Origin: Deltaproteobacteria bacterium
GTDB taxonomy: Bacteria > Myxococcota > Kuafuiibacteriia > Kuafuiibacteriales > Kuafuiibacteriaceae
NCBI GenBank assembly: GCA_040218735.1
Contig: JAVJQW010000023.1
Span: 32,001 to 96,000, forward strand
Direction of reading: 5' to 3'
Length of the DNA: 64,000 bases
Made by a program: the position numbers and the translations under genes. This document shows positions 1,275 through 17,372 of this stretch, one piece after another; the stretch's first letter is position 1, and each line of letters opens with the position of its first letter. The notes below the pieces were generated by a model. The model made no database searches. It was not told the DNA's origin and saw nothing but the letters and a program-made list of their open reading frames with translations.

Positions 1275-1946
1275 GTGTCTGACGAGAAGGATCCGGCCGG
1301 CGAGGCTGCCGACGACGCCATCCAGGATGCCATGGCCGAGGCGGTCGCTTCCATGGAGGCCCGTGAAGACGGCGACGAAAAGCCCACGGACGGAAAACCG
1401 AGCGCGGCCGACGCCGTGACGGAGGCGCTCATCGACGCCAAGAAAGAGCTCGAAGAGGTCCTCGAGCAGACCCAAAAAGAAGCCGGCAGCTTCCGAGAGA
1501 AGTGGCTCCGCGCCGCGGCGGATCTCGAAAACTACCGCAAGCGCGCCGCGCGCGAGCGTGACGATGTCGCAAAGTTCGGTAACGAGAAGCTCCTCAAGGA
1601 CTTCCTGCCGATCGTCGACGACCTCGAACGCTCGATCGATGTGGTCGCGCAGTCCGAGGTCGGCGACACCGGACAGCAGCTCCTCGACGGCGTGAAGCTC
1701 GTCCTCAAGAAGTTCCTCAGCCAGCTCGAGAAGAACGGCGTCACGACGTTCGACTCCGTCGGTGAGACGTTCGATCCCTCCCAGCACGAGGCCGTGCAGC
1801 AGATCCACGCGGATCGCCCGCAGGGACAAGTGCACACGCAGCTTCAGCGCGGGTTCATGATCAACGATCGCCTGCTGCGCCCCGCGATGGTCGTCGTGTC
1901 GCTCGGACCGGAGGGCGGGAGCAAGGGTGACGGGGGCGAAGGATGA
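1275..1946 (+). CDS. grpE: Nucleotide exchange factor GrpE
   Basis: [22 protein letters not shown] and [18 protein letters not shown] motifs; ATGA overlap with dnaK. Confidence 0.97.
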
Positions 1947-3772
1947 GCAAGATCATCGGCATCGACCTCGGGACGACGAACTCGTGTGTCGCGGTGATGG
2001 ACGGCGGCGAGGCCGTCGTCATCCCGAACTCCGAGGGGAGCCGCACCACCCCGTCGATGGTCGCGTTCACCGATTCGGGTGAGCGCCTCGTCGGCCAGAT
2101 CGCGAAGCGCCAGGCGGTGACGAACAGCGAGAACACGGTGTTCTCGGTGAAGCGTTTCATCGGGCGCCCGTTCGACTCCGACGAGGTCCGGCAGGACCAG
2201 AGCAAGTCGCCGTACACGGTCGTGTCCGCGGACAACGGCGAAGCGTGGGTGCAGATCCGCGACAAGTCGTACTCACCGCAGGAAATCTCCGCGATGATCC
2301 TCATGAAGATGAAGGAGACCGCGGAGGACTACCTCGGCGAGGAGGTCACGGAAGCGGTCATCACGGTCCCCGCGTACTTCAACGACGCCCAGCGTCAGGC
2401 AACCAAGGACGCCGGGAAGGTCGCCGGGCTGAACGTCCCGCGCATCATCAACGAGCCGACGGCGGCGGCGCTCGCGTACGGCCTCGACAAGAAGGAGAGC
2501 GTGCGGGTCGCGGTCTACGACCTCGGCGGCGGCACGTTCGATATCTCGATCCTCGAGCTCGGTGACGGCGTCTTCGAGGTGAAGTCGACGAACGGCGACA
2601 CGCACCTCGGCGGTGACGACTTCGACCTGTCGATCATCAACTTCCTCGCGGACCGGTTCTCGGAGGAGAACGCGGGGGCGGACCTTCGCAAGGACAAGAT
2701 GGCGCTGCAGCGCCTGAAGGAAGCCGCGGAGAAGGCGAAGCACGAGCTGTCGTCGTCGACGGAGACGGACGTCAACCTGCCCTTCATCATGGCGGACGCC
2801 ACCGGGCCGAAGCACCTGAACACCACGGTCACGCGCCAGGAGCTCGAGCAGCTCGTGGAGCCGTTGATCCAGCGCTCGCTGGAGCCGTGCGGTCAGGCGC
2901 TGAAGGACGCGGGGCTCGCGAAGGGGGACATCGACGAGGTGTTGCTCGTCGGCGGTCAGACGCGGATGCCGCGCATCCAGCAGGTGGTGCGCGACTTCTT
3001 CGACAAGGACCCGAACAAGAAGGTCAACCCGGACGAGGTGGTCGCGATCGGCGCGGCGATTCAGGGCGGCGTCCTCAAGGGCGACGTCAAGGATGTGCTG
3101 CTGCTCGACGTGAACCCGCTGTCGCTCGGTGTCGAGACGGCGGGCGGTGTCTTCACGGCGATCATCCAGCGCAACACGACCATCCCGGCGAAGAAGTCGA
3201 TGGTGTTCTCGACGGCGATGGACAACCAGCCGATCGTGGACGTGCACGTGCTGCAGGGCGAGCGCCCGATGGCCGAGGACAACAAAACGCTCGGGCGGTT
3301 CCAACTGGTGGGCATTCCGCCGGCGCCCCGCGGTGTTCCTCAGATCGAAGTGACCTTCGACATCGACGCCAACGGTATCGTGCACGTGTCGGCGCGCGAC
3401 CTCGGCACGGGGAAGAAGCAGCAGATCAAGATCATCGCGTCGTCGGGTCTGACCGAGGACGAGATCGAGCGGATGGTGAAGGAGGCGGAGTCCAGCAAGA
3501 CGGACGACGCCAAGAAGAAGGAGCTGGCCGACCTGAGGAACATGGCGGACGGCCTGCTCTACACGACCGAGAAGTCGCTCGAGGAGTACTCGTCGATGCT
3601 CACGGAGGACGACATCGAGGACATCAAGGAAGACCTCGAATCCGTGAAGAGCGTCTACGAATCGAACGACGTCGAGAAGATCAAGGCCGCGATCCAGCGG
3701 CTGGAAGGTTCGTCACACCGCATCGCCGAGGCCATGTACCAAGAGGCGCTGCAGGACGACGACGAGGGCTAA
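1943..3772 (+). CDS. dnaK: Chaperone DnaK (Hsp70)
   Basis: [38 protein letters not shown] and [15 protein letters not shown] motifs. Confidence 0.99.
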
Positions 3773-4868: not shown

Positions 4869-5543
4869 TTACTGCTCGTCCACGCAGAGGCGCGCGATGC
4901 GCTCACGGACGTGCTCCGTCTCGTCGTCGAACGTGAACTGAATCCCGAGCCAGCGTGTGTCGTGCTGGGAGCGGCTCGCCGCTTTCGCTCGACGCACGGT
5001 GCCGTCGACCTTCGTGAAACGCGGCTCGCCCGGGAGCTGGAGCATGAGCTCCACTTGGTCACCGACCGCGAAGTCGCGGCCGGGTGACTTCACGACGAAG
5101 GCACAGCCACCGCGCGACAGGTCGCGGACGGTGCCCTGCAAGCGTTGCTCGCCGATCTTCAGCGCGCCGCGAACGCAAACCCGAAGTCGCTCGTCCTTTC
5201 GTCGCGCGTACTCCTGAAGGATGTCCGGATAACCGACGAAGATCAGCGTCGCCGGTGACTCGTAGACCAGCTGGATCCGCGTGACGAACCCGAGCTCCCC
5301 CATGCCCGGCGAGTAGCGCGCAACGCACCGCGCCCCCGGGTAGAGCGGCGCGTCCGTGTCGTCCGGGATCTCGAGGAGCAGGTACTCCGACACCTTGTAG
5401 CCCCGGAGCGTCGCAGTGACCTGCGCCGACTCGCCGTGGTCCTCGATCAGGAGCTGCAGCTGGGCGTCCACGACGAGGTGCACCGGACCGCGGTCCTGCA
5501 CCAACGTCACGTCGGACGGCAAACGAGCGGCAGGCAACACCAC
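4869..5543 (-). CDS. PilZ-domain c-di-GMP receptor, YcgR/flagellar-brake-like (PilZN + PilZ)
   Basis: RKDER (RxxxR) and DLSRGG (DxSxxG) motifs after an N-terminal beta-barrel-like region. Start uncertain. Confidence 0.85.
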   Translation of the reverse strand: MVLPAARLPSDVTLVQDRGPVHLVVDAQLQLLIEDHGESAQVTATLRGYKVSEYLLLEIPDDTDAPLYPGARCVARYSPGMGELGFVTRIQLVYESPATLIFVGYPDILQEYARRKDERLRVCVRGALKIGEQRLQGTVRDLSRGGCAFVVKSPGRDFAVGDQVELMLQLPGEPRFTKVDGTVRRAKAASRSQHDTRWLGIQFTFDDETEHVRERIARLCVDEQ

Positions 5544-5551
5544 GAGACCAA

Positions 5552-5579
5552 GAATCGGCGAACCCGGGTCTGACCTTGA
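5552..5579 (-). promoter_or_regulatory. Sigma28 (FliA)-like promoter of the PilZ gene
   Basis: Minus strand reads TCAA-N16-GCCGATTC versus consensus TAAA-N15/16-GCCGATAA. Confidence 0.5.
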
Positions 5580-5610
5580 GAGGGGGTCTCTGGGTTAGGA
5601 TGGAGCGGTC

Positions 5611-6884
5611 GTGCGTGCGGCCCGAGTCGCCTCGTTCTGGATCGTCGTCACGGCCGCGTGCGGGTCCGAGTCCGATCTGTTCGTGAAACGCGTCTGGGGC
5701 GAATCCGAGGCCGCCATCCTCGTCGCCGTCGCCGAGTCCGGCGAGCGGACGCCGATCGTCGTCGCCGCTTCGGCGGGCGTCCGCGAGGCGACGTTCGAAG
5801 CGGAGGGTGACGTCACCTACTACGCGCAGACCTTCGAAGAGCTCGAAGGTCGGGACGTCTCGCAGTGCACGGTCACGTTCGGCCCCAACGACGACCTCGC
5901 GTTGGGCACCGCGCACCGATCTTGGATCGGCCAGCGCGACGGCGACGCGATTCAGTGGTCCCTCGAAGACGTGCCGCGCGCCTTCGACCTCCGCATTCGC
6001 GGCTGCGAGCGGCCCCGCGGGAGCTGCGACGTGGGGATCGAGCTGTTGGACGGCGGCCCCAGCGTCAGTGGGCTGTTCGCGACCGCGGTGCTCGACGACG
6101 ACACCGCCCTCTTCGCCGGCGCGCGTCGCGGCGACGGCGATATGAGCACCCTCACCATGCGCTACGACCGCGGAACGGTGTCGACGCTCCCTCCCGATCC
6201 GAACCTCATCGGAAAGATCCAAGCCGTCGAGTACGACGGTGACCGCATCATCGCCGCGCAGGGTGATCACCTCCTCCAGCTCGACCGACGGGGGGTCGTC
6301 ACTGCGTCGGTCGCGGTCGGCTTTGCGATCGAAGCCATGGAGATCGGGAGCGACGGTGCGGCGTTCCTGATGTCGTCGGACGGCGAGCTCGCGTTTGTCG
6401 CGCCGGGCACGCTCAGGCCGACCGCCTTCGCACCGCCACGCTACGGCGAGTTGACCGGCGGCGAGGTGAACCTCGACGTCGTCGACGCCGACACCCTCGT
6501 CCTGCTCGGGCCGGACGGGAGTGTGTGGCACTACACCGAAGAGAAGTGGACCTTGCTCCTCGAACGCGTCGAGGCGCGGGTGATCGCCACGGACGGCCGC
6601 GACGTGCTCCTCGCGCGCAACCACGCGTCCGTGCTCATCCACCGCATCGGGGGGTCGGACTGGGAGGGGATCAGCGTCGCGTTCAACCAACAGAACGCCA
6701 TCCACGCCGAAGCGATCGGGGGCGGACGGTTCATCATCACCGGGCAGACCGGCACCGTCATGTACTACGATGGCGCGATGGCCTGCACCGTACCGTCCGC
6801 GACCGATCGGAACATCGAGGACTTCGACCTGAGCCCGAGCGGCGACGTCGCGTTCGCGGTGGGCGAGCACTTCAGCGCGACTGA
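5611..6884 (+). CDS. Putative beta-propeller lipoprotein; expected stop out of frame (ORF as given runs to 7656)
   Basis: Lipobox-like VTAAC and beta-rich repeats up to ...GEHFSAT. After ~6880 the frame becomes Arg-rich antisense shadow. TGA at 6882-6884 is one base out of frame. Confidence 0.65.
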
Positions 6885-8682
6885 CCGAGGTCGACGACTC
6901 CGCCGCCGGCGCGAGCCAACGACGCACCGACTCTTCGAGGCGCGGGCGTGCGACGGGTTTCGACAGGAAGTCACACATGCCGGCGTTCTCGCAGCGCACA
7001 CGATCGGCGTCGGTGACATACGCGGTCACCGCGATGACGGGGACCGGCGTCTGGGCAGTGCTCGTGATGCGCTCCGTCGCCTCCCACCCGTTCATCACCG
7101 GCATCTCGCAGTCCATGAAGATCGCGTCGTAGTCCGCGGCGGCCGCGCGCTCGACGGCCTCCTGTCCGTTGGTCGCTTCGTCGACCTCCAGGCCGAGCTT
7201 CTTCAACATCCGCGACAGGACCATGCGGTTGACGCGGTTGTCGTCGACCACGAGCACGCGGCGCCCACCGACGGCGCTGACCGGCGGCGGCGGTGGCGCT
7301 TCGACGATGCGCGCGGGCACGCGGACGGTGATCGTCGTCCCGAGGCCGAGCTTCGACTGGATCTCGATCGTACCCCCCATTCGACGGAGGACCCGATCCA
7401 CCATCGCGAGGCCGAGCCCCGCCCCGCCGAACGACCGCGTCGCCGCGTCGTTGACCTGGTAGAAGAGGTCGAAGATTCGCTCGAGGTATTCGTCCGGGAT
7501 CCCGATCCCGGTGTCACGCACCGTCAGCAGCATGCCTCCGCCGTCCGCGCTCAAGCGCACGTGCACGTGACCCTCCGGCGTGAACTTGACGGCGTTCTCG
7601 ATGAGTCGCTCCGCGACGATGAGCAACCCGTCGGCATCACAACGCACCCGATGTGACAGCTCGGGTGCGACGTCGAAGCAAAACTCCAGGTTGCACCGCT
7701 GCGCAGCCCGGCGTGTCCGGTCGATGACCGGCGCGAGGTGTTTCTCGACGCTCACCTCGCCAATAGGAACGACGAGGTCCTCGGTTCCGCCGTCGGCAAG
7801 CGCGAGAACGTCTTCGATCAGGCGGGTGAGGTTGGCGGCCGAGTCCTCGAGCGCGACGCGGAAGTCTTCGCGAGAGATGGAGTCCGCTTCATCGAGCACG
7901 CCGCTCATCGAGCCTACGATTCCATTGAGTGGAGTCCGGAGCTCATGGCTCATGATCGAGAGGAAACGACGCTTCACCTCCAGGGCGCGCTGCATCTCCT
8001 CGTGGGCGACCTCGAGGCGACGGTATTGTGCGTTGAGCTCTTCTTGCTGACGGTTGAGCTCCTCGAGCGCCGCCTGGCCTGCGAACAGCGCTCGGAAGGC
8101 GCGACGGATGCGCGCCGGTAGCGTTTGTGACTGCGGCGGACGAACGAGGTACGTGCCGCGTCGGTCGTCGAGCTCGAAGTGCACCTCGGCGTCGGGGAGG
8201 CCCAGCAAACGTGGGAGCGCCTGCAGGATGCCGCGTGTGATGAGAAAGAATCCGACCGACGTTCGGTAGGGCTCCGGGATCTCGACGACGATGCGGATCT
8301 CGCCGTTCGGGAGCTCCGTCTGTTCGGAGCGAAGGTTGCTGAACGTGCGCTTGAACCCGAAGCCGTGGCCCACCGTGTAGAGCACCTTCGGGCTCGCCAC
8401 GACGGAGAGCACGCGGAGCATCCCGCCGAACTTCGGCAGCTTGAGCGCGGAGCGCCCGCACTCTTCGAGGGAGATCTTCCCCGCGGCTGCGACCGCCATA
8501 CGGTCGTAGAGCACACAGGCTTCCTCCCAGCTGAATCGCTTCGGGCGGTCGAGGAGGTGCTCATAGCCCTCGAGGATGGCGGCCTCGGAGCCGAGCAGCA
8601 GCTCCCCGCACACGAGGAACGGTTCGAGCGCCTCGCCGGCGACCTCCTCGCCTCCGTGGTGGACCGTGACCTCAGACCCCAT
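6872..8682 (-). CDS. Hybrid sensor histidine kinase/response regulator; expected stop out of frame
   Basis: H-box MSHELRTPLNGI, N-box ENAVKFT, DTGIGI, GAGLGL, receiver VLVVDDN...FMDCEMP...KP. Probable start ATG at 8682. The minus-strand TGA at 6874-6872 is one base out of frame. Confidence 0.88.
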
Positions 8683-8731
8683 CTCGTATCTGATGTCGGA
8701 CGCCCTGCGACGAAATTCAGTGGCCGGGCGA

Positions 8732-10360
8732 TCAGGCGCGCATCGCCGACACCCGCCCGTTGGCGTTGTGGAGCCGACCGCGGTGTGGCGCAGTGACCAC
8801 CCACTCGTACCAGGCGCGCCGGGTGCGGGAGCGCCGGAAGAGCTCGACGCGGAGCGTAGACGCCTCGCGAATCCCGAAGGGTTGCGCAAACGGCAGGTAC
8901 ATCGGACTCCAGCTGCGCATCCCGGGCGTCGCGTCTTGGGGGACGATCGACAACCGAACGCCGTCGGCGAGCTCCATATCGAAGAACGCGCCGAGACCGT
9001 GGGCGACGCCGTCTGCCTCGATTTGAAACGCTACGGCCGCGTGCTGATCGAGCGGCTCCTCGCCGGGGTGTGTGAAATGAAAGACCGGCTGCGGCGGAGC
9101 GAGGAGACACGCGCGGTCCAGGGTGATCGTGTAGAGCTTTTCGGGCTCCGCCACCGCCATCGCGAGGGACTCGGCGTGCAGCGGAGCGACGTAGCTCGTG
9201 TATGCGCGCGGGATCGAAACGCCGTCCCCCGCGAGGTGTCGTTCGATCGGTCGCAGGCACTCCGGCGACAGCTCGTTGTCACCAAAGCCACCGAGGAGCT
9301 CGCTGACGAGGACGTCGATCGGAGCGTCGGGTACCCAGCTCCGCATGTCCGCGTCGACGACCTTCGCTGCGTTTCTCCACTCGCGTTCGTTGCGCGCGTG
9401 GAGCGTCGCGCGCGCACCGGGGTTCTTCTCGAGCAGGACGAGTCGAATCCTTCGGTTCAGGAACTGCGCGGCGCGAAGGACCTGGTCCACCAACCCACCG
9501 CGCCCCGCCCCCGCGACGACGACGTGTGTGTCGTCCGGGCGATCACGAAGCACGGCGAGGGCGGCCTCGTGGTACGCGCGGTACTTCACCGGGTCACTCT
9601 CGATCACCTCGTACGTCGCGCTCGGGATGTCGTCGCCGAGGGGCTCGACCGGGATGATCGGGGCGTTGGCAAATGCCGCCGCGTGGTGGTGCTGCGCAGA
9701 CACCCCCGCCCACGCCGCGCGATAGGCTTCGTCGAGGTCGTTGCGCTGCTCGGGGTCCGTGAGCAGCACACGTTCGCCGAAGCTCCGGAACAACCGCTCG
9801 AACGCCGGCCACGCCTTCGACGCGACCACGAGCTCCACCGGCTCGGCGCACCATCGTTCGACGACGCCCTTGGACGGAGGGCGCTTCGTCGCGTCGAGCG
9901 CCACGTGTACGCGCGAGTGATGTGCAAAGAACCACCGCGCGTCGTCGTAGAGCGACCAGCCGGCCTCCGACCACGGGACGAGCAACCAGGCGTGCGCCGG
10001 TCCGCGCTCGATCAGCGACGCGATCGCCGCGAGCTGCGCGGTGGTCGTCTTCTTCGACAGCGGTAGCATCACCGCGGGGAGGCCGAGGTACACCGCGCGC
10101 TCCACCTGCGCTTCGATCGACTGCCCGGGCGCGATCGCACCGACGATGCGCCGACGCCAGGTCGCCGCGTCGAGCTCTCGGTCGTGATAGGCGGTCGAGG
10201 CGAGGTCGATGAGCGCGAGCTCCCCCCCGAGGCGCGCGACCTGGTTCAGCCCTACCTGCAGGCCGTGGTCGAGGCCGACCTGGACGACGTAGGTGAGGCG
10301 ACGGAGATCGGGCTGGGTGAGGCGCGCGTAGAGACGCGCCATGTCCTCGGAGCTGGTCAT
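8732..10360 (-). CDS. PRMT5-like (Skb1/Hsl7 family) protein arginine N-methyltransferase
   Basis: Colinear matches to PRMT5 motifs: YLGLPAVMLPL, ERWCAEPV, TYEVIESDPVKY, GAGRGG, EKNP, DMRSW, VSELLGGFGDNELSPECL, DGVSIP, FHFTHP, LSIVP, PGMRSW, WYEW, HNANGR. Confidence 0.93.
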   Translation of the reverse strand: MTSSEDMARLYARLTQPDLRRLTYVVQVGLDHGLQVGLNQVARLGGELALIDLASTAYHDRELDAATWRRRIVGAIAPGQSIEAQVERAVYLGLPAVMLPLSKKTTTAQLAAIASLIERGPAHAWLLVPWSEAGWSLYDDARWFFAHHSRVHVALDATKRPPSKGVVERWCAEPVELVVASKAWPAFERLFRSFGERVLLTDPEQRNDLDEAYRAAWAGVSAQHHHAAAFANAPIIPVEPLGDDIPSATYEVIESDPVKYRAYHEAALAVLRDRPDDTHVVVAGAGRGGLVDQVLRAAQFLNRRIRLVLLEKNPGARATLHARNEREWRNAAKVVDADMRSWVPDAPIDVLVSELLGGFGDNELSPECLRPIERHLAGDGVSIPRAYTSYVAPLHAESLAMAVAEPEKLYTITLDRACLLAPPQPVFHFTHPGEEPLDQHAAVAFQIEADGVAHGLGAFFDMELADGVRLSIVPQDATPGMRSWSPMYLPFAQPFGIREASTLRVELFRRSRTRRAWYEWVVTAPHRGRLHNANGRVSAMRA

Positions 10361-10376
10361 GCGCGGCGAGCGTAGC

Positions 10377-11057
10377 TCAGCGAACGCGAATCGGAGACTT
10401 TTCGTAGCGGGTCAGAACGACCTTCACGTAGCGGCGCGTCTCGGCGAACGGCGGGACGCCGCGGTGTCGGGCGACAGCGGCGGGTCCGGCGTTGTACGCG
10501 GCGACGGCGAGCTTCAGGGAACCGAAGCGGTCGAACATCTTCCGCAGGTACCGCGCGCCGCCCATGATGTTCTGGCGCGGGTCGAAGGCATCGCGCACGC
10601 CGACCTCGGCGGCGGTCGCGGGCATGAGCTGCATCAACCCCCGCGCGCCTGCGCTCGAGACGGCGTTGGGCCGATAACCGGACTCGGTGCGAATGACGGC
10701 GTCGATCAGCGCGGCCGGGAGCCCCGTGGCCCGTGACGCTTCTTCGATGAACGGAGCGAGCGCCGAGTAGTTGGAGCGTGAGGGACCGAGCGTCGCGAAG
10801 TGCGGCTTCTTGCCGGGCGGCTCCATGACGTCCGGCTCGAAGTAGGAGTCCGGCGGCGCACCCGGGCGGACATCGCGTGCGAGCAGGATGCCGAGCGCCT
10901 CGGTCTCGTCCCAGTCCATGAACTCTTCGTAGCCGACGACGATGTCGTCACCCATGACGTCGGCCGCGAAGTTGAGCGCCTCCGCGAGGTCGTTCGCGTG
11001 CGCGACCACGGGGACCGCGGCGAACGTGAAGACCAGCACCGAACGCAGGACGTGCAT
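10377..11057 (-). CDS. Secreted lytic transglycosylase (SLT domain)
   Basis: Signal peptide MHVLRSVLVFTFAAVPVVAHA; AVIRTES catalytic Glu, GARGLMQLMP, AYNAGP, ETRRYV. Confidence 0.93.
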   Translation of the reverse strand: MHVLRSVLVFTFAAVPVVAHANDLAEALNFAADVMGDDIVVGYEEFMDWDETEALGILLARDVRPGAPPDSYFEPDVMEPPGKKPHFATLGPSRSNYSALAPFIEEASRATGLPAALIDAVIRTESGYRPNAVSSAGARGLMQLMPATAAEVGVRDAFDPRQNIMGGARYLRKMFDRFGSLKLAVAAYNAGPAAVARHRGVPPFAETRRYVKVVLTRYEKSPIRVR

Positions 11058-11070
11058 CGTCTCGATAGGG

Positions 11071-11098
11071 TTGTCGGCAACCCGTCCTTCGAGGTTGC
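11071..11098 (-). promoter_or_regulatory. Possible sigma28-like promoter upstream of the SLT gene
   Basis: Minus strand reads GCAA-N16-GCCGACAA, ending 13 nt before the ATG. Confidence 0.4.
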
Positions 11099-11153
11099 GC
11101 CAAAAAGATCGGTTGCGCCAGGGGGCGCCGTGGGGGTGTATGGGGGCGTTCTC

Positions 11154-12005
11154 GTGGGCACGCACCACCTCGTACAGCTCGGGCCCGATCATGCAGAGAT
11201 CGCGCTCGCTTACTGCCAACGGCGCCCGCATCGCACGACGTTCCTGGCGGGGTGGATTCAGGACGGAGGTTTGTCCGAAGACCCGCGTGCGCCGCGCGCG
11301 TGGCTGTTCGCCGACATCGACGACGAGGGCGCCATTCAGGGCCTCGTCTACATCTCCGACACGGGCATCGTGCTCCCGGTCTCCTCCCAGGCGGACGGGT
11401 TGGACGGCCTCGTGGAGATCGCGCGCCGAAACCCGACGGCGGTGCGGGTGATCGTCGGCGAGCGCACGTTGGTCGCTTCGCTGTGGCGACGCATTCAGCC
11501 GTTCGGCTTCACGGCGCGGATCGACCGCAACCAGCTCGGCTACTCCGTGAGCGCCGGGAGCTTCGCCGACACCACTTCACACACCCTCGTCCGCGCGAGC
11601 GACACACACCTCGATCAGCTCGTCGAAGCCTCCGCCGCGATGGCACGCGAAGAGGCGCGCGACGATCCGCAGTCGCGGAACCCGGCGCTGTTCCGCTCGC
11701 GCATTCACGATCGTGTGAAGCGCGGGCGTGACTTCCTCTTCGAGGAGGGCGGGCGCGTCACGTTCAAGTGCAACGTGTCGGCGCTGTCCAAGGTCGGCGG
11801 ACAGATCGAGGGCATCTACACCGTCCCGACGCGGCGCCGCACGGGCCTCGGTCGCGCGGGGACCATCGCGGTGACCGCTTGGGTCCTCGAGCGGAGCCCG
11901 CGCGCGTTCCTCCTCGTCAACGACGACAACGAAGCGGCGCTTCGGCTCTACGAGAGCCTCGGTTACGAGAAGCGGTTGGAGAGCCGGACGATCTTCGTCA
12001 AGTGA
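11154..12005 (+). CDS. GNAT family acetyltransferase
   Basis: C-terminal IEGIYTVPTRRRTGLG acetyl-CoA motif and VNDDNEAALRLYESLGY. Start approximate (GTG 11136 or 11154). Confidence 0.85.
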   Translation: MGTHHLVQLGPDHAEIALAYCQRRPHRTTFLAGWIQDGGLSEDPRAPRAWLFADIDDEGAIQGLVYISDTGIVLPVSSQADGLDGLVEIARRNPTAVRVIVGERTLVASLWRRIQPFGFTARIDRNQLGYSVSAGSFADTTSHTLVRASDTHLDQLVEASAAMAREEARDDPQSRNPALFRSRIHDRVKRGRDFLFEEGGRVTFKCNVSALSKVGGQIEGIYTVPTRRRTGLGRAGTIAVTAWVLERSPRAFLLVNDDNEAALRLYESLGYEKRLESRTIFVK

Positions 12006-15000
12006 CCGGCGGCGTGAGCCGTCGGATGAGCGCGGCGAGGTGCTCGTCGTCGAAACGCCCCGCCTCGAGCAGCGCCGCGGCGAGCGCGCGCATGACGACG
12101 ATCGTGTCCTCGTCGTCCAGGGCAGCGCCGGCGGCGAACTGTTCGACGAGCGCGCGCACGTGCTCCCCGGTCGGCGGCCCCTCCGCGACCTCCGCGAGCT
12201 CGATGTCCTCCGACGCGTCGGGGAGGTCGTCCGCGTCGGACGGCGCCTCGACCAGCGCTTCGGCGGGCAGCGGCACGGGTGCGTCGGGATCCAGCACGCG
12301 CTCGGCGTGCGCGAAGGCGTCCGCCCCGAGCGGGAGCGGCGCGTCGCCCGCGTTCGGCTCCGCGTTGATGAAGGCGTCTTCGCCGAGCGGGCGCGGCGCG
12401 TCCGGCGACGCGGCGGCGGCGTCCGGCTCCGCGTGCACGAAGGCGTCCGCGCCGAGCGGGCGCGGCGCGTCCGTCGAAGCAGCGGCGGCGTCCGGCTCCG
12501 CGTGCACGACGGCGTCCGCGCCGAGCGGGCGCGGCGCGTCCGTCGACGCGGCGTTTTCGTTCGGCTCCCCGCGACCGAGCGCGGGCGACGCAGCGGCGGC
12601 CACGTCCGGCTCCGCTTGAACGAAGTTGTCCGCGCCGAGCGGGCGCGGCGCGTCCGCGTCGTGCGGGAGCGAAGCGGCGCCCTTGGAGGGCGGGTCCGGA
12701 AGCGTCGCCACGTCGGCGGGCGGCGGCACGTCCCGGCGCGGGGCGTCCTCGTCCGCGGCGTCGTGGGACGCTGCCTCGAGCGCCGAGGTGTCGTGGGCAT
12801 CGGCCGACTCGCTTGCGATCGGCGCCGAGGCGTCGAGGGACGCCGCTTCGGGCGCCGAGGTGTCGTGGGCCTCGGCCGGCGCGTGGGCGTTCGCCGCCGA
12901 GGCGTCTAGGGACGCTGCTTCGGGCGCCGAGGTGTCGTGGGCCTCGACCGGCGCGTGGGCGCTCGGCGCCGAGGCGTCGTGGGACGCTGCCTCGGGCGCC
13001 GAGGTGTCGTGGGCATCGGCCCGCGCGTGGGCGCTCGGCGCCGAGGCGTCGTGGGCCTCGGCCGACTCGCTCGCGATCGGTTCGGGGGGATCCGAGCGCG
13101 GCCCCTCGCCGTCGGCAGCGACTTCGGCCGCGACCGGCGCGAGCGCCTCCGGCGTGCCGTCATGACCACCCGGGGGCTCGTTGTGCAACGCGAGGGAGGC
13201 CCCGTCATCCGCCGAATCATCGTCGGCCCCCGCAGCCGCGGCCGACTCTGCGCCGACGTCGAGTGGGCTCGGCTCGGCGCCCGCGCCGCCGCGCGACGGT
13301 TCCGCGCCGACGTCGGCGAGCGCGCGAACGACCGCCGCGTCGACGTCCCCGGGCGCGGCGATCTCTGCCTCGTTGGACGCTGGCGCCCCGGCCGAAGGCC
13401 GCTGCACGCGGTCGACCGTCACCGTGTTCGCCAAGTCTGGCGTAACGCGTTCTGCAGACACGGTGCTCGCCAGGTCCGCCGGCACCTCGGGCACCGCGTC
13501 CGCGGGCGGGACCTCCGCCGAGCCACCGAACTGCGGCGAGCTCGTCGCGCCGCCATCGTCGCCCGGCGCGCCGATCATCTCGCCCGGCGCACCGAACAGG
13601 CCTTCGGGCACCTCGGCGTCGACCGTCTGCGTTCCGACCTCGGGCGAAGCGTCGACGGTGTCGACGCCCTGCGGCTCCGGCTCTGCGATCATCGTCGGCA
13701 GCGCGCTGTCCGCGGGCTCGGGGATCTCGAAGTCTTCGGTCGGGGCTCCGGTCGGCGCCGACGTCGGCGTCGAGCTCGAGCCCCAGGACAACGCGGGATC
13801 GAGGAGGTCACCCCAGCTCGGCCCCGTATCGACGTCCTGGGCCGCCGGCTCGGGCGCCGTCGGCTCGGGGATGCTCGTCGGCGCCTCATCGACGGTGCCG
13901 TTCGTCGCGCCGCGCGGCTCGTCGACCCCGGCGAACGCGCCCAGCGGCTCCGGCGGTGGGAACGCGTCGTCGTCGCCCGGCGCCTCGGGCGCGACGCCCG
14001 GGTCGGTCGAGATTCCGGCGAGCGCCGCGTCGACCGCCGCGTTGGACGACTCCGCCTCGGACGTCAGGCCCGCGAAGGCCTCGTCGATCGCGACGTCCGC
14101 GGGATCCCGCGACGACGCATCACCGACGAACGGGGAGGACGCAGACAGACCGGACTGCTGCGTCGCCTGTTCGGCGAGGGGCGGCGGCGCCGATCGGACC
14201 TCTTCGTCGAACGCGGCGGCGAGCGCGTCGTCGAGGTTCACCTCCGGCGGACGATGCACGGCGTCGACGAGCTCGTTGACCGCCGGGAACGCGCCGGACT
14301 CGACGACGTCCTCCGCGATGAGGATGTCGTCCGACGTCTCGCCGGAGGACAGCGGGAGGAGGTCCTTCGACCCCATCGACTGCATCCGCGACGCCGGCAG
14401 CGGCGTCTCGCCCATCGCAACGGAGAGCGCAGCGGCGATGTCGGCGGTCGACTGCCCCATCGATGGCGACACGCCGCGCGGCGGCGTGGAAAACGCCGAT
14501 GCCCGTTCGACGGGCCCCGAGACCGGGCGCCCCTGGATGACGGGGATGTCGCTCGAAGGCTTGGGCGCCTCACCGTAGTGACGCGCGAGCGCGAGCTCCA
14601 TCTCCGTCTCGCCCGCGAGCATCCACCGCACGCGGGTGTTCGTTCCCACGACGGCCCGCAGCGCTTGCAGCGCCGTCTTGTCGAGCGGATCGGAGGTGGC
14701 GACATAGAGACAGTCGCGGCTGTCTTCGCGCTGGCGCGCGATCGGGAGCACGTGATGTTTGAACGCGAGCGCGGCCGGCACGAGCGCGAGCACGCGCTCG
14801 TGGATCGGCGTCATGATCGGATCACAAGGCTCGATCCCCAGCTGACGAGACAGCGCGTGGACGAGGCGCTCCTCGGTGATGACCCCCGCACGAACGAGGA
14901 TCTTGCCCAGGCGCATGCCGGATCGCTGTTGCTCTTCGAGCGCGGACTCGAGCTGAGCCGCGTCGATGAAACCCATGTCGATCAGGAGCGAACCGAGCTG

Positions 15001-15015
15001 TTGCCCCGCAGTCAT
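11998..15015 (-). CDS. MshEN/GspE-N domain protein with a long acidic low-complexity repeat region
   Basis: Tandem MshEN motifs QLGSLLIDMGFI...Q and RLGKILVRAGVI...LSRQ, then a T2SSE_N-like region (ATSDPLD). No ATPase motifs. About 750 aa of Ala/Pro/Asp/Glu-rich sequence and a short helical C-terminus follow. Confidence 0.8.
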   Translation of the reverse strand: MTAGQQLGSLLIDMGFIDAAQLESALEEQQRSGMRLGKILVRAGVITEERLVHALSRQLGIEPCDPIMTPIHERVLALVPAALAFKHHVLPIARQREDSRDCLYVATSDPLDKTALQALRAVVGTNTRVRWMLAGETEMELALARHYGEAPKPSSDIPVIQGRPVSGPVERASAFSTPPRGVSPSMGQSTADIAAALSVAMGETPLPASRMQSMGSKDLLPLSSGETSDDILIAEDVVESGAFPAVNELVDAVHRPPEVNLDDALAAAFDEEVRSAPPPLAEQATQQSGLSASSPFVGDASSRDPADVAIDEAFAGLTSEAESSNAAVDAALAGISTDPGVAPEAPGDDDAFPPPEPLGAFAGVDEPRGATNGTVDEAPTSIPEPTAPEPAAQDVDTGPSWGDLLDPALSWGSSSTPTSAPTGAPTEDFEIPEPADSALPTMIAEPEPQGVDTVDASPEVGTQTVDAEVPEGLFGAPGEMIGAPGDDGGATSSPQFGGSAEVPPADAVPEVPADLASTVSAERVTPDLANTVTVDRVQRPSAGAPASNEAEIAAPGDVDAAVVRALADVGAEPSRGGAGAEPSPLDVGAESAAAAGADDDSADDGASLALHNEPPGGHDGTPEALAPVAAEVAADGEGPRSDPPEPIASESAEAHDASAPSAHARADAHDTSAPEAASHDASAPSAHAPVEAHDTSAPEAASLDASAANAHAPAEAHDTSAPEAASLDASAPIASESADAHDTSALEAASHDAADEDAPRRDVPPPADVATLPDPPSKGAASLPHDADAPRPLGADNFVQAEPDVAAAASPALGRGEPNENAASTDAPRPLGADAVVHAEPDAAAASTDAPRPLGADAFVHAEPDAAAASPDAPRPLGEDAFINAEPNAGDAPLPLGADAFAHAERVLDPDAPVPLPAEALVEAPSDADDLPDASEDIELAEVAEGPPTGEHVRALVEQFAAGAALDDEDTIVVMRALAAALLEAGRFDDEHLAALIRRLTPPVT
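12310..12660. repeat. Intragenic tandem repeat, ~69 bp (DAPRPLGADAFVHAEPDAAAAST), 5 imperfect copies
   Basis: Core aaggcgtccgcgccgagcgggcgcggcgcgtccg at ~12314, 12371, 12440, 12509 and 12624. Confidence 0.85.
12760..13085. repeat. Intragenic tandem repeat, 72 bp (AHDTSAPEAASxDASAPSAHAPAE), ~4.5 copies
   Basis: (g/a)gcgccgaggtgtcgtggg at 12779, 12851, 12923 and 12995 (72 bp period). Confidence 0.9.
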
Positions 15016-15083
15016 CGGCGTCCGGCAGCCTAATCCATAACGAGCCAGCGCTCCACGAAACGACCGCCGCCGCCGAGTCTTCT

Positions 15084-17372
15084 CTAGGATACGGCCACGA
15101 TCGCGCGCAGGACCGCCTCGGGTGTGCACGGTATGGCTAGCTCGACCTCGCGAGAACCGAACGCACCGACCGCGTGACGCAACGCCGTGACCACCCCGAT
15201 CGCGAGCATGAACGGTGGTTCTCCGACCGCCTTGCTCCCGTGCACGACGTCGGACTGCGGTGCCCCCTGCAGGAGCTGGACGTCGAACGCCAACGGCGCC
15301 TCGGACATCGCGGGGATCTTGTACGTGTCCGGGGAGTGCGTCTTCAGGTCCCCAGCGGGGCCCCAGACGAGCTCCTCACACGTGAGCCAACCGAGCCCCT
15401 GGATGAACCCACCTTCGATCTGTCCGCGGTCGATGGTCGGCACGAGTGAATCACCCACGTCGTGCAGGATGTCGACCCGCCGAACCTTGTGCTCGCCCGT
15501 GAGCCCGCTGACCTCCACCTCGATCACGGCGCCGCCGTACGCGAAGTAGTGAAACGGTTTCCCCTTGCCGACGCTCGGGTCGTACTCGATGTCGGGCGTC
15601 CGGTAGTAACCCGTCGCGGACAACGAGACCTGATCCGCGTACGCCCGCGCGACGACGTCTTCGAACGACACCGCGCGCTCACCCGACGAGACACGCCCGT
15701 CCTCGAAGCGGAGCGGCTCCAGCTCCGAGCACCCGATGAGCTTCGCCGCCACGGGTCCGAGCCGCGAGCGCAACCGCTCACACGCCTGTTTGATCGCCGC
15801 GCCGTTGAGGTCCGAGCCACTCGACGCCGCCGTCGCCGAAGTGTTCGGCACCTTGTCCGTCGAGGTGTTCATCAACCGGATGCGCTCGGGCTTCACACCG
15901 AGCTCGTGCGCCGCCACCGCGATCATCTTGGTATGCAGGCCCTGCCCCATCTCGGTACCGCCGTGGTTCACCTGCACGCTCCCGTCCGCGTAGACGAGGA
16001 CGAGCGCACCCGCCTGGTTGAGCATCGCGTTCGTGAACGAGATGCCGAACTTCACCGGCTGGTACGCGATGCCGCGCTTCACGAACCGCGACGACGTGTT
16101 GAACCGCGCGATGTCCTGACGGCGCTCGTGGTACCGCGCGTCGTCGAGGAGCTGATCGTGGATGCGCTCGAGGCGGCACTCCGAGACCTCCTGGTCGTAG
16201 GGCGTTCGGTTCCGCGGCGCGTCGCCGTAGTAGTTGCGCTTGCGGACGTCCGCCGGGTCCAGGCCCAACCGCTCCGCCGCGCGGTTGAGTATCTCTTCGA
16301 CGACCGCCATCCCCTGCGGCCCACCGAACCCGCGGAACGCGGTGTTCGACGGTTTGTTCGTACGCGCGACGCGCCCTTGGAAGTACAGCGCCGGCACGTA
16401 GTACGCGTTGTCGAGGTGGAAGAGGCAGCGGTCGAGGATCGCCTGCGAGAGATCCGCGCTCCAACCACCGTCGGAGTACGTGTAGACCTCGAGCGCGAGG
16501 AGGTCCCCCTCGTTCGAGAACCCCGCACGATATTTTGAATGGAACGGATGACGCTTCCCGGTCTGCGTCATGTCCTGGTCGCGGTTGAGCCAGACCTTCA
16601 CGGGCCGGCCCGTCGCACGCACCCCCAGCGCCGCGAGCGCGGCGAAGTGGGCCCCTTGGGTCTCCTTGCCGCCGAAGCCTCCGCCCATACGGGGGGTCTC
16701 GACCACCACGTGGTGACGCGCGAGCCCGAGCACCTCGGCGACCTTCGCTTGCACCTCGGACGGGTGCTGCGTCGACGCGTACACCTGGTAGGTGTCGTCC
16801 TCGCCGGGGATCACCAGCGACACGTGCGACTCGAGGTAGAAGTGGTCCTGCCCACCGGTGTCGATCTCCCCTTCGATCTTCACCGGCGCCTCGGCGAGCG
16901 CCGTCTTCACGTCGCCGCGACGCATCTCGTGCGGCTTGGTGATGAACGCCTCCTTGGCGATCGCGTCCTTCAGGTCGAGCAACGCGGGCTTCGGCTCCAC
17001 GATCAGCTCGATCGCAGCCGCTGCCTCGCGGCACTTCTCGTAGGACTCCGCGACGATCAGCGCGACCGCCTGGCCGACGCAGTAGACCTCCTCCTTCGCG
17101 AGCAGCTCCTCGTCGTGGGTGAACGGCGCGATGTCGTTCTCACCCGGGATGTCCTTCGCGGTGATCACCGCGAAGACGCCGTCGATCGCGAGCGCGTCGT
17201 CGACGTCGAGCGAACGGATCGTCCCGCGCGCGACGGGCGACGGGAGCACCTGTCCGACCAACATCCCGCGCGGCGGCGGGAGGTCGTCGACGTACATCGC
17301 GGCGCCGCTCGCGTGGCGATGCCCGCTCTCGTGGATCGCCGGGCGATGCAGAGGGCTCTTTGCGTCGCTCAT
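15084..17372 (-). CDS. xdhB: Xanthine dehydrogenase molybdopterin-binding subunit
   Basis: QDHFYLE, GGGFGGKE, TAFRGFGGPQG, GTEMGQG, TAASSGSD, GQIEGG and SKAVGEPP motifs. Start MSDAKS at 17372. Confidence 0.95.
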   Translation of the reverse strand: MSDAKSPLHRPAIHESGHRHASGAAMYVDDLPPPRGMLVGQVLPSPVARGTIRSLDVDDALAIDGVFAVITAKDIPGENDIAPFTHDEELLAKEEVYCVGQAVALIVAESYEKCREAAAAIELIVEPKPALLDLKDAIAKEAFITKPHEMRRGDVKTALAEAPVKIEGEIDTGGQDHFYLESHVSLVIPGEDDTYQVYASTQHPSEVQAKVAEVLGLARHHVVVETPRMGGGFGGKETQGAHFAALAALGVRATGRPVKVWLNRDQDMTQTGKRHPFHSKYRAGFSNEGDLLALEVYTYSDGGWSADLSQAILDRCLFHLDNAYYVPALYFQGRVARTNKPSNTAFRGFGGPQGMAVVEEILNRAAERLGLDPADVRKRNYYGDAPRNRTPYDQEVSECRLERIHDQLLDDARYHERRQDIARFNTSSRFVKRGIAYQPVKFGISFTNAMLNQAGALVLVYADGSVQVNHGGTEMGQGLHTKMIAVAAHELGVKPERIRLMNTSTDKVPNTSATAASSGSDLNGAAIKQACERLRSRLGPVAAKLIGCSELEPLRFEDGRVSSGERAVSFEDVVARAYADQVSLSATGYYRTPDIEYDPSVGKGKPFHYFAYGGAVIEVEVSGLTGEHKVRRVDILHDVGDSLVPTIDRGQIEGGFIQGLGWLTCEELVWGPAGDLKTHSPDTYKIPAMSEAPLAFDVQLLQGAPQSDVVHGSKAVGEPPFMLAIGVVTALRHAVGAFGSREVELAIPCTPEAVLRAIVAVS

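Follow-up and report, generated by a model that had tools for sequence, protein, structure and literature searches.

Is a full-length member of the protein arginine methyltransferase 5 (PRMT5) family genuinely encoded in the chromosome of an uncultured, myxobacterium-like organism, and if so, what might it do there? The question is raised by a 64,000-nucleotide stretch of DNA (the window), which corresponds to positions 32001-96000 of contig C9 (JAVJQW010000023.1) in a Deltaproteobacteria assembly of the phylum Myxococcota (GCA_040218735.1, hereafter G000), and which carries on its reverse strand a single gene resembling PRMT5. To our knowledge, PRMT5 is treated as a eukaryotic enzyme. The human protein works as a hetero-octamer with MEP50, assisted by substrate adaptors, on histones and Sm proteins, and is a cancer drug target. 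The data below establish that the gene in the window belongs to the PRMT5 family, that its cofactor-binding and catalytic residues are conserved, that it is under purifying selection and that it resides in an authentic bacterial locus. We consider it likely that this genuine chromosomal PRMT5 is, most probably, a self-sufficient S-adenosylmethionine (SAM)-dependent arginine methyltransferase of bacterial proteins; enzymatic activity and the choice of arginine as target are predictions from its sequence. The gene and its domains are as follows.

8732..10360, minus strand: PRMT5-family gene, a single open reading frame (ORF) of 542 residues with an ATG start and a TGA stop
9818..10117, minus strand: stretch matching PRMT5_TIM, residues 82-181, within an N-terminal domain of approximately residues 1-222
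9212..9694, minus strand: SAM-dependent catalytic (Rossmann) domain, residues 223-383 (PF05185)
9272..9301, minus strand: double-E loop, residues 354-363, ELLGGFGDNE, by alignment to human PRMT5
8744..9202, minus strand: C-terminal beta-barrel/oligomerisation domain, residues 387-539 (PF17286)

The original prediction, drawn by eye from the reading frame, was of a full-length, three-domain PRMT5 homologue, and profile searches bear this out. All three Pfam families are matched above their cut-offs: PRMT5 (PF05185) at 162.2 bits against a cut-off of 22.9, covering profile positions 3-171 of 171; PRMT5_C (PF17286) at 128.4 bits against 30.3; and PRMT5_TIM (PF17285) at 39.4 bits against 30.2. When the PDB was searched with phmmer, only PRMT5 chains were returned, headed by the human enzyme (4gqb_A, E 2.8e-78) and including those of Xenopus (4g56_A, 5.8e-71) and C. 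elegans (3ua3_A, 1.7e-42). The 15 best cluster sets in the Atlas are likewise all three-domain PRMT5, and the clusters of at least 50 members found in this look-up are all eukaryotic PRMT5; no NCBIfam family matches the 542-residue protein, and the Atlas contains no structural model for it. Each of the motifs on which the prediction had relied is present in the alignment to the human protein, namely YLGLPA, RW..EP, TYEV.E.DP.KY, GAGRG, EKNP, DMR and VSELLG.F.DNELSPECL in the first two domains, and PGM.SW, WYEW.VT.P and HN..GR in the beta-barrel.

Compared with the type II enzymes of eukaryotes (human PRMT5, S. pombe Skb1, S. cerevisiae Hsl7 and C. elegans PRMT-5), the window protein has the same three domains in the same order, with 30-37% identity over 74-97% of its length, and shares the SAM-binding motifs, the double-E loop and the equivalents of human K333, C449 and S578-W579. 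It differs from them in being intron-less and bacterial, in falling into a separate clade, in having Ile in place of F327 and Gly in place of S439, and in its trimmed N-terminus: human PRMT5 is about 95 residues longer, and the window protein lacks several TIM-barrel segments. Its N-terminal domain is nevertheless colinear with the vertebrate TIM barrel, minus segments of approximately 18, 15, 27, 8+8 and 9 residues, the ~27-residue segment being an acidic loop.

The same class of bacteria also encodes PRMT1-like enzymes of the PRMT_C type (PF22528), which likewise combine a Rossmann domain with a following PRMT-type beta-barrel. These are shorter (~315-330 residues), possess no TIM barrel, and match PRMT_C and PrmA but not PRMT5 above cut-off; they align to the window protein at E ~1e-4 and are separated from it in trees by a very long branch. 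One such gene is found in G000 itself (G000:C45:100390-100818, L020), and the type occurs in all 20 genomes of the class and in none of 14 controls, and thus represents a second, universal PRMT-fold enzyme in these bacteria. A PRMT1-type identity for the window protein was considered and rejected, since it has no PF22528 match at E <= 0.1 and that type is encoded separately. In a related genome, a second PRMT_C-type methyltransferase (G003:C21; L008 1258-2409, minus strand) was observed, with 383 residues, a C-terminal extension of approximately 100 residues, and an upstream ORF of 346 residues that overlaps its start.

The residues required for cofactor binding and catalysis are extensively conserved. 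Aligned to human PRMT5, the window protein retains the SAM pocket (GAGRG at 284-288, E311 for human E392, and D338-M339-R340), together with Y250, K259 (human K333) and Y260. The counterparts of human E435 and E444, the glutamates of the double-E loop, are E354 and E363, and C449 is matched by C368, the cysteine of the SPEC motif, both as originally proposed; S483-W484 corresponds to S578-W579. GAGRG, E311, D338, R340, Y250, K259, Y260, E354, E363, C368 and W484 are common to all seven rows of our bacterial alignment (A1), and M339 to six, with Ile in the seventh; these residues are also present in 92-95 of 95 eukaryote-like rows. Altogether, the seven bacterial sequences agree at 92 positions, with the catalytic motifs among them. 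Moreover, comparison to the orthologue of the same genus gave ratios of nonsynonymous to synonymous substitution (dN/dS) of 0.25 (309 codons) and 0.30 (244 codons), which indicates that the protein is under purifying selection.

To place this gene among its relatives, PF05185 was searched for in genomes sampled from the phylum, and was detected in 5 of 401 (G000, G001, G004, G006 and G010). All five carriers belong to a single lineage of class rank that comprises 20 genomes from 12 genera, while none of the 381 other genomes of the phylum and none of 14 control genomes gave a match; the class, the order and the family to which G000 is assigned in this genome collection all consist of these 20 genomes. 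The carriers are not those genomes that stand nearest to G000: G010 belongs with its most distant relatives (DnaK 82%, HrcA 60% identical), whereas the nearer G011, G007 and G003 have no match. Diverged orthologues also occur in three further genera, where they lie within contigs of 131 kb, 609 kb and 3.3 Mb. From one genus to another, PRMT5 identity is 37-41%, compared to 60-68% for HrcA and 82-89% for DnaK, and PRMT5 hence evolves faster than these housekeeping proteins.

Broader searches added few bacterial relatives. A word-indexed search of 5.8 billion protein clusters returned 239 matches. Two residues separate P0001, encoded on a 9261-bp contig from sequencing run X3, from the window protein; the bacterial-looking P0002-P0005 are among the first five matches and P0084 ranks lower, and the remaining matches listed are named eukaryotic PRMT5 or unnamed proteins, at 27-46% identity, mostly 30-37%. 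When 1.84 billion representatives were searched with a profile built from the seven bacterial sequences (A1), 5598 were retrieved at E <= 0.001 and 922 at E <= 1e-30. Only five bacterial-type representatives stood out, scoring 855, 818, 797, 597 and 468 bits (P0005, P0003, P0084, P0122 and P0123, respectively), followed by a continuous series from 447 bits; these five are encoded on contigs of 14-145 kb and fall within the bacterial group in every tree. Scanning genome contigs with the single protein gave one locus, from a metagenome-assembled genome (MAG) of the same genus. A metagenome scan with the bacterial alignment gave 80 loci, all eukaryote-like and at no more than 42% identity, with no new bacterial locus, and a scan of viral contigs gave no relative. 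The bacterial homologues as a whole (P0002, P0003, P0004, P0005, P0084, P0121, P0122 and P0123/P0261) share the shortened architecture, at 528-587 residues, and the ELLGGF motif, with Gly at the S439 position in all seven rows of A1, and form one clan in trees; they are 33-76% identical to the window protein, and their gene neighbors, where read, differ from those of the window. P0004 is the copy from G010, a 'hypothetical protein' of a Deltaproteobacteria MAG at NCBI, and P0121 the copy from G004. Among the source names, two are 'hypothetical protein' (NCBI, Deltaproteobacteria MAGs), and P0261 is annotated at JGI as 'protein arginine N-methyltransferase 5'.

A eukaryote-like gene in an assembly of this kind could reflect an error of binning or assembly that brought eukaryotic DNA into a bacterial MAG. 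G000 is a metagenome-type assembly of 11.6 Mb in 70 contigs, 96.5% complete with an estimated contamination of 4.65%, and the close named relatives of the protein outside its own clade are all eukaryotic, both of which would suit such an origin. The locus itself indicates otherwise. The gene occupies C9:40735-42360 on a contig that extends beyond 561 kb, contains no introns, and has a GC content at third codon positions (GC3) of 0.86, compared to 0.82-0.95 for the neighboring ORFs and 0.81-0.95 for the other window ORFs chosen by the same rule. It lies 5 kb from hrcA-grpE-dnaK, and the surrounding genes are bacterial by Pfam (hrcA, grpE, dnaK, asd, PilZ, a hybrid histidine kinase, SLT, GNAT and a MshEN-domain protein); for HrcA, encoded 8 kb away, the nearest named relatives are Myxococcota, Myxococcales and Deltaproteobacteria MAG proteins at 57-67% identity. 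The gene is closely flanked on the same strand by two of these bacterial genes.

10377..11231, minus strand: SLT-domain lytic transglycosylase, upstream of PRMT5 (Pfam SLT, 2.1e-28), whose stop lies 16 nt before the PRMT5 start
6879..8682, minus strand: hybrid histidine kinase (HisKA, HATPase_c and receiver domains), downstream of PRMT5, whose ATG lies 49 nt after the PRMT5 stop

The arrangement recurs in a MAG of the same genus (G001), in which one contig holds the 3' half of PRMT5, the kinase, dnaK and hrcA, and another holds the 5' half, SLT, GNAT and MshEN, in the same order as in the window. Moreover, contigs from two other studies bridge both flanks at ~99% identity: the X3 contig spans window positions 5000-12481 (62 differences in 5604 bases), and a 2858-bp contig from run X2 spans 7867-10724, comprising the whole of PRMT5 and parts of both neighbors (10 differences in 2858 bases). 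Taken with the orthologues in three further genera, the host-like composition, the neighboring genes, the synteny in G001 and the X2 and X3 contigs exclude contamination or a chimeric join for practical purposes, and we regard the probability of a mis-binned gene as close to negligible; the intron-less, host-like and bacterially flanked gene of the original prediction is thus corroborated, as is its linkage to both flanks. The locus was present in 21 public runs from 8 studies, none of which is recorded as RNA. No terminator-like site was found between the SLT, PRMT5 and kinase genes, and we infer that their co-transcription is plausible and probable, in this genus only.

A chromosomal gene could still be a decaying, functionless relic of gene transfer, and its patchy occurrence (5 of the 20 genomes of the class) and rapid evolution would both be consistent with decay, yet the ORF in the window is intact, orthologues of 528-587 residues are intact in several diverged lineages, and both the low dN/dS and the invariant positions, catalytic motifs included, speak of maintained function; we therefore think a relic very unlikely. 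More pertinent is the possibility that the PRMT5 fold was kept while its chemistry changed, such that the product would be monomethylarginine only, or asymmetric dimethylarginine (ADMA) as well, or that the substrate would be something other than protein arginine. We judge this to be rather unlikely, and prefer a PRMT5-like arginine methyltransferase, since the protein retains the entire SAM pocket as well as K259, S483-W484 and the two catalytic glutamates. Several observations nonetheless weigh against that preference, or against its simplest form. The PRMT5_TIM match is partial (profile positions 71-192 of 252), and two bacterial relatives, P0084 and P0121, give no PRMT5_TIM match at E <= 0.001. 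The copy in G006 (L018 ~9264-10753, on G006:C1) matches in three frames, implying two frame changes, as a relic might; the adjoining molybdopterin oxidoreductase gene of that genome is also split into overlapping ORFs, such that decay and assembly error are indistinguishable for this PRMT5 copy. Gene neighbors are not conserved between genera, comprising HSP20, NlpC/P60 and an insertion sequence (IS)-like element in G010, a Ser/Thr kinase in G006, and TetR, a beta-lactamase-family protein and thiamine genes in G004, all unrelated to those of the window, and any operon-level hint to function is therefore absent. As for partners, neither pICln (PF03517) nor Tudor was found in the genome by searches that matched no control genome either, and these are accordingly weak negatives.

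Further reservations concern the active site itself. The position of human F327, a residue tied to specificity for symmetric dimethylation, is I253 in the window protein and is Phe in all 95 eukaryote-like rows; that of S439 is G358, which is Gly in all seven bacterial rows and Ser in all 95 eukaryote-like rows. Section 2.1 of PMC6272650 lists F327, K333, S578 and S439 as active-site residues specific to PRMT5, so that of these four, K333 and S578 are kept in the window protein and F327 and S439 are replaced. In that same section, the F327M mutant of human PRMT5 is described as producing ADMA as well as symmetric dimethylarginine (SDMA), and mutation of S439 or S578 as strongly lowering activity (PMC6272650). 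These mutant effects, as given there, suggest that catalysis in the bacterial protein may differ or be weak, and with Ile and Gly at the two positions the product may be that of mono-, symmetric or asymmetric dimethylation. The replacements are not uniform across the clade, however. Ile at the F327 position is confined to three of the seven bacterial rows, the window protein and its two closest relatives, and the other four have Phe, so the active site of the clade looks like that of a normal PRMT5 apart from the Gly. Within the sequences aligned, Gly at the S439 position is a signature of the bacterial clade, although beyond the seven rows of A1, P0122 has Gly and P0123 has Ser. Since both F327 and S439 are replaced, we classify the protein as a bacterial variant of PRMT5 rather than a plain orthologue. 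Neither replacement had been pointed out when the gene was originally described, though they were visible in a motif quoted at the time.

In the mechanism that we propose, the PRMT5 protein would bind SAM and methylate arginine guanidino groups of bacterial proteins, and would do so alone, with no need of MEP50, pICln, Sm proteins or histones. Neither the usual substrates of PRMT5 nor their readers were detected: the genome gave no match to the LSM or histone-fold families, though control genomes did, and Tudor was absent with the limit stated above, MEP50, a generic WD40 protein, lying outside the families searched. This absence also lends some support to a changed substrate or product. Membership of the PRMT5 family stands, but the active arginine methylation system of the original prediction goes beyond the evidence, given the altered F327 and S439 positions, the lack of a conserved partner gene and the varying neighborhoods.

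If the protein methylates arginine, the genome offers candidate substrates. An RG-density filter retrieved 27 RG-dense ORFs, seven of which were profiled; six combine RG-rich stretches with ordinary domains, and the seventh matches nothing in Pfam. The RG-rich proteins include an RluB-like pseudouridine synthase, an FtsJ-like methyltransferase, DnaX, a member of the uracil-DNA glycosylase family, a RIO-domain kinase and a 186-residue GR-repeat protein. We consider these RG-rich-tailed proteins to be candidates, with none specifically tied to PRMT5. The GR-repeat protein (G000:C35:48181-48741; L102, P0274) has no Pfam match and features eight GR repeats near its C-terminus, reminiscent of Sm RG tails; its family is found in 18 of the 20 genomes of the class, with or without PRMT5, and so has no specific link to it. 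The kinase (G000:C18:230409-232382, L106) possesses a RIO1 domain and a long region of RGG/ERGGG repeats. Human RIOK1 is a PRMT5 adaptor. Strong RIO1 matches occur in four of the five PRMT5 carriers and in three of the 15 non-carriers, with weak matches in the further non-carrier G012, in genomes that are related and hence not independent; this co-occurrence is suggestive only, and there is no sign of a link between the RIO1 kinase and PRMT5.

The origin of the gene was addressed by phylogeny. A FastTree analysis of 148 rows comprised the window protein, eight bacterial relatives, four bacterial PRMT_C-type outgroups, 20 named eukaryotes and 115 of 136 unnamed representatives (P0124-P0260), the other 21 being shorter than 520 or longer than 800 residues. 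The nine bacterial sequences came out together as a basal group of PRMT5, with none of the 115 unnamed rows inside it. Smaller trees used hand-picked subsets, with 20 and then 16 named eukaryotes and a few unnamed sequences; Discoba, Metamonada, Alveolata and land plants were not knowingly represented in any tree. A quick IQ-TREE search under a site-heterogeneous model (49 rows x 580 columns) placed all 20 named eukaryotes on one side of a branch with a Shimodaira-Hasegawa-like approximate likelihood ratio test (SH-aLRT) support of 93, while the bacteria appeared as three lineages next to the outgroup, with a support of 42 for their monophyly. Under the posterior mean site frequency (PMSF) model with 1000 ultrafast bootstraps (UFBoot) and three outgroups (31 rows x 546 columns), bacterial monophyly received 0/78 (SH-aLRT/UFBoot), and a group of the eukaryotes with the unnamed P0251 received 41.6/54; the outgroup branch measured 6.1 substitutions per site. 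When the outgroup was removed (28 rows x 558 columns), nine bacterial sequences were separated from 18 eukaryotic sequences plus P0251 at 98.5/100, by a branch of length 0.39. P0251, the nearest neighbor of the bacterial clan in these trees and itself on a long branch, is an AT-rich, short PRMT5-like protein of 531 residues with an ELLGGF motif of the bacterial type, encoded on a metagenome contig of 21.5 kb.

Judged by these trees, the bacterial proteins are a separate clan, placed inside none of the animals, fungi, amoebozoans, stramenopiles and cryptophytes sampled. The clan may be the sister group of all eukaryotic PRMT5, or it may equally be an early branch that is pulled towards the outgroup by the length of the latter's branch. 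The origin of the gene is probably an old event: an ancestor of the class may have acquired it from a eukaryotic donor that lay outside the sampled crown groups or predated them, with most descendants then losing it, or PRMT5 may be old in this bacterial lineage. On distribution alone, transfer from a eukaryote to the ancestor of the class followed by losses is the more economical reading, because one small bacterial class stands against hundreds of eukaryotic clusters. The converse, in which this bacterial lineage already possessed PRMT5 before the last eukaryotic common ancestor and bacteria of this kind passed it on to eukaryotes, draws on the bacterial sequences being nested in no eukaryotic group, on a root that falls at or among the bacterial lineages when bacterial PRMT_C-type methyltransferases are used, and on the universal PRMT_C-type enzyme of the class, which suggests that PRMT-fold enzymes are at home there. 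Yet that root has little support, the great length of the outgroup branch makes long-branch attraction likely, and carriers amount to 5 of 401 genomes in one small class compared to the 922 representatives, drawn from hundreds of eukaryotic clusters, retrieved at E <= 1e-30. We thus consider a bacteria-first origin unlikely. The same applies to a split of the bacterial clade from eukaryotic PRMT5 before the radiation of living eukaryotes, which in its boldest form would have a myxobacterium-like partner in eukaryogenesis supply PRMT5 to the stem lineage of eukaryotes; it is an improbable scenario, and were it true, these bacteria would preserve a minimal, partner-free ancestral PRMT5. A separate bacterial clan fits the originally envisaged alternatives of a long-ago acquisition or an unrecognised bacterial lineage.

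The window protein adds one more 'eukaryotic' gene to myxobacteria-like lineages; eukaryote-like genes in such genomes are a known phenomenon. We regard the novelty as moderate: this is a rare and uncharacterized bacterial subfamily of a well-known enzyme, already in databases without comment. No description of a bacterial PRMT5 was found in the full-text literature searched, outside of which most subscription journals fall; the novelty originally claimed is somewhat reduced by the few bacterial homologues already deposited, two entries at NCBI and one at JGI. Small and intron-less, with a shortened TIM barrel and with no partners detected, the protein could serve a PRMT specialist as a minimal model, a simple system for the core enzyme acting alone. 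The changes F327 to Ile and S439 to Gly, at positions that do not vary among the eukaryote-like sequences compared, also make it a natural experiment on these two residues. Should the enzyme prove active, it would constitute evidence for PRMT5-type arginine methylation in some bacteria. A clade outside all sampled eukaryotic groups is moreover relevant to where PRMT5 came from, within the limits set by its great rarity.

Further features of these loci were observed along the way. The IS-like element of G010 (L017 ~1480-3500, on G010:C7) lies a few hundred bases from PRMT5 and has terminal inverted repeats of ~25 nt, as judged by eye. Downstream of PRMT5 in the window, the X2 and X3 contigs have ~44 extra letters at positions 6878-6879, where contigs from runs X4 and X6 end. 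The convergent genes that meet at this point run on without a stop, a lipoprotein-like ORF (from 5611, plus strand) to 7656 and the kinase (minus strand) to 5059, and the window assembly probably lacks a short stretch of ~44 nt that holds both stop codons. On the other side, the MshEN-domain protein (11998-15129, minus strand; 1043 residues) features a low-complexity middle of GC 0.74-0.78 with repeated Ala/Pro/Asp-rich units. Inside this gene the X3 contig skips 66 nt, at 12481-12548, which suggests variation in repeat number.

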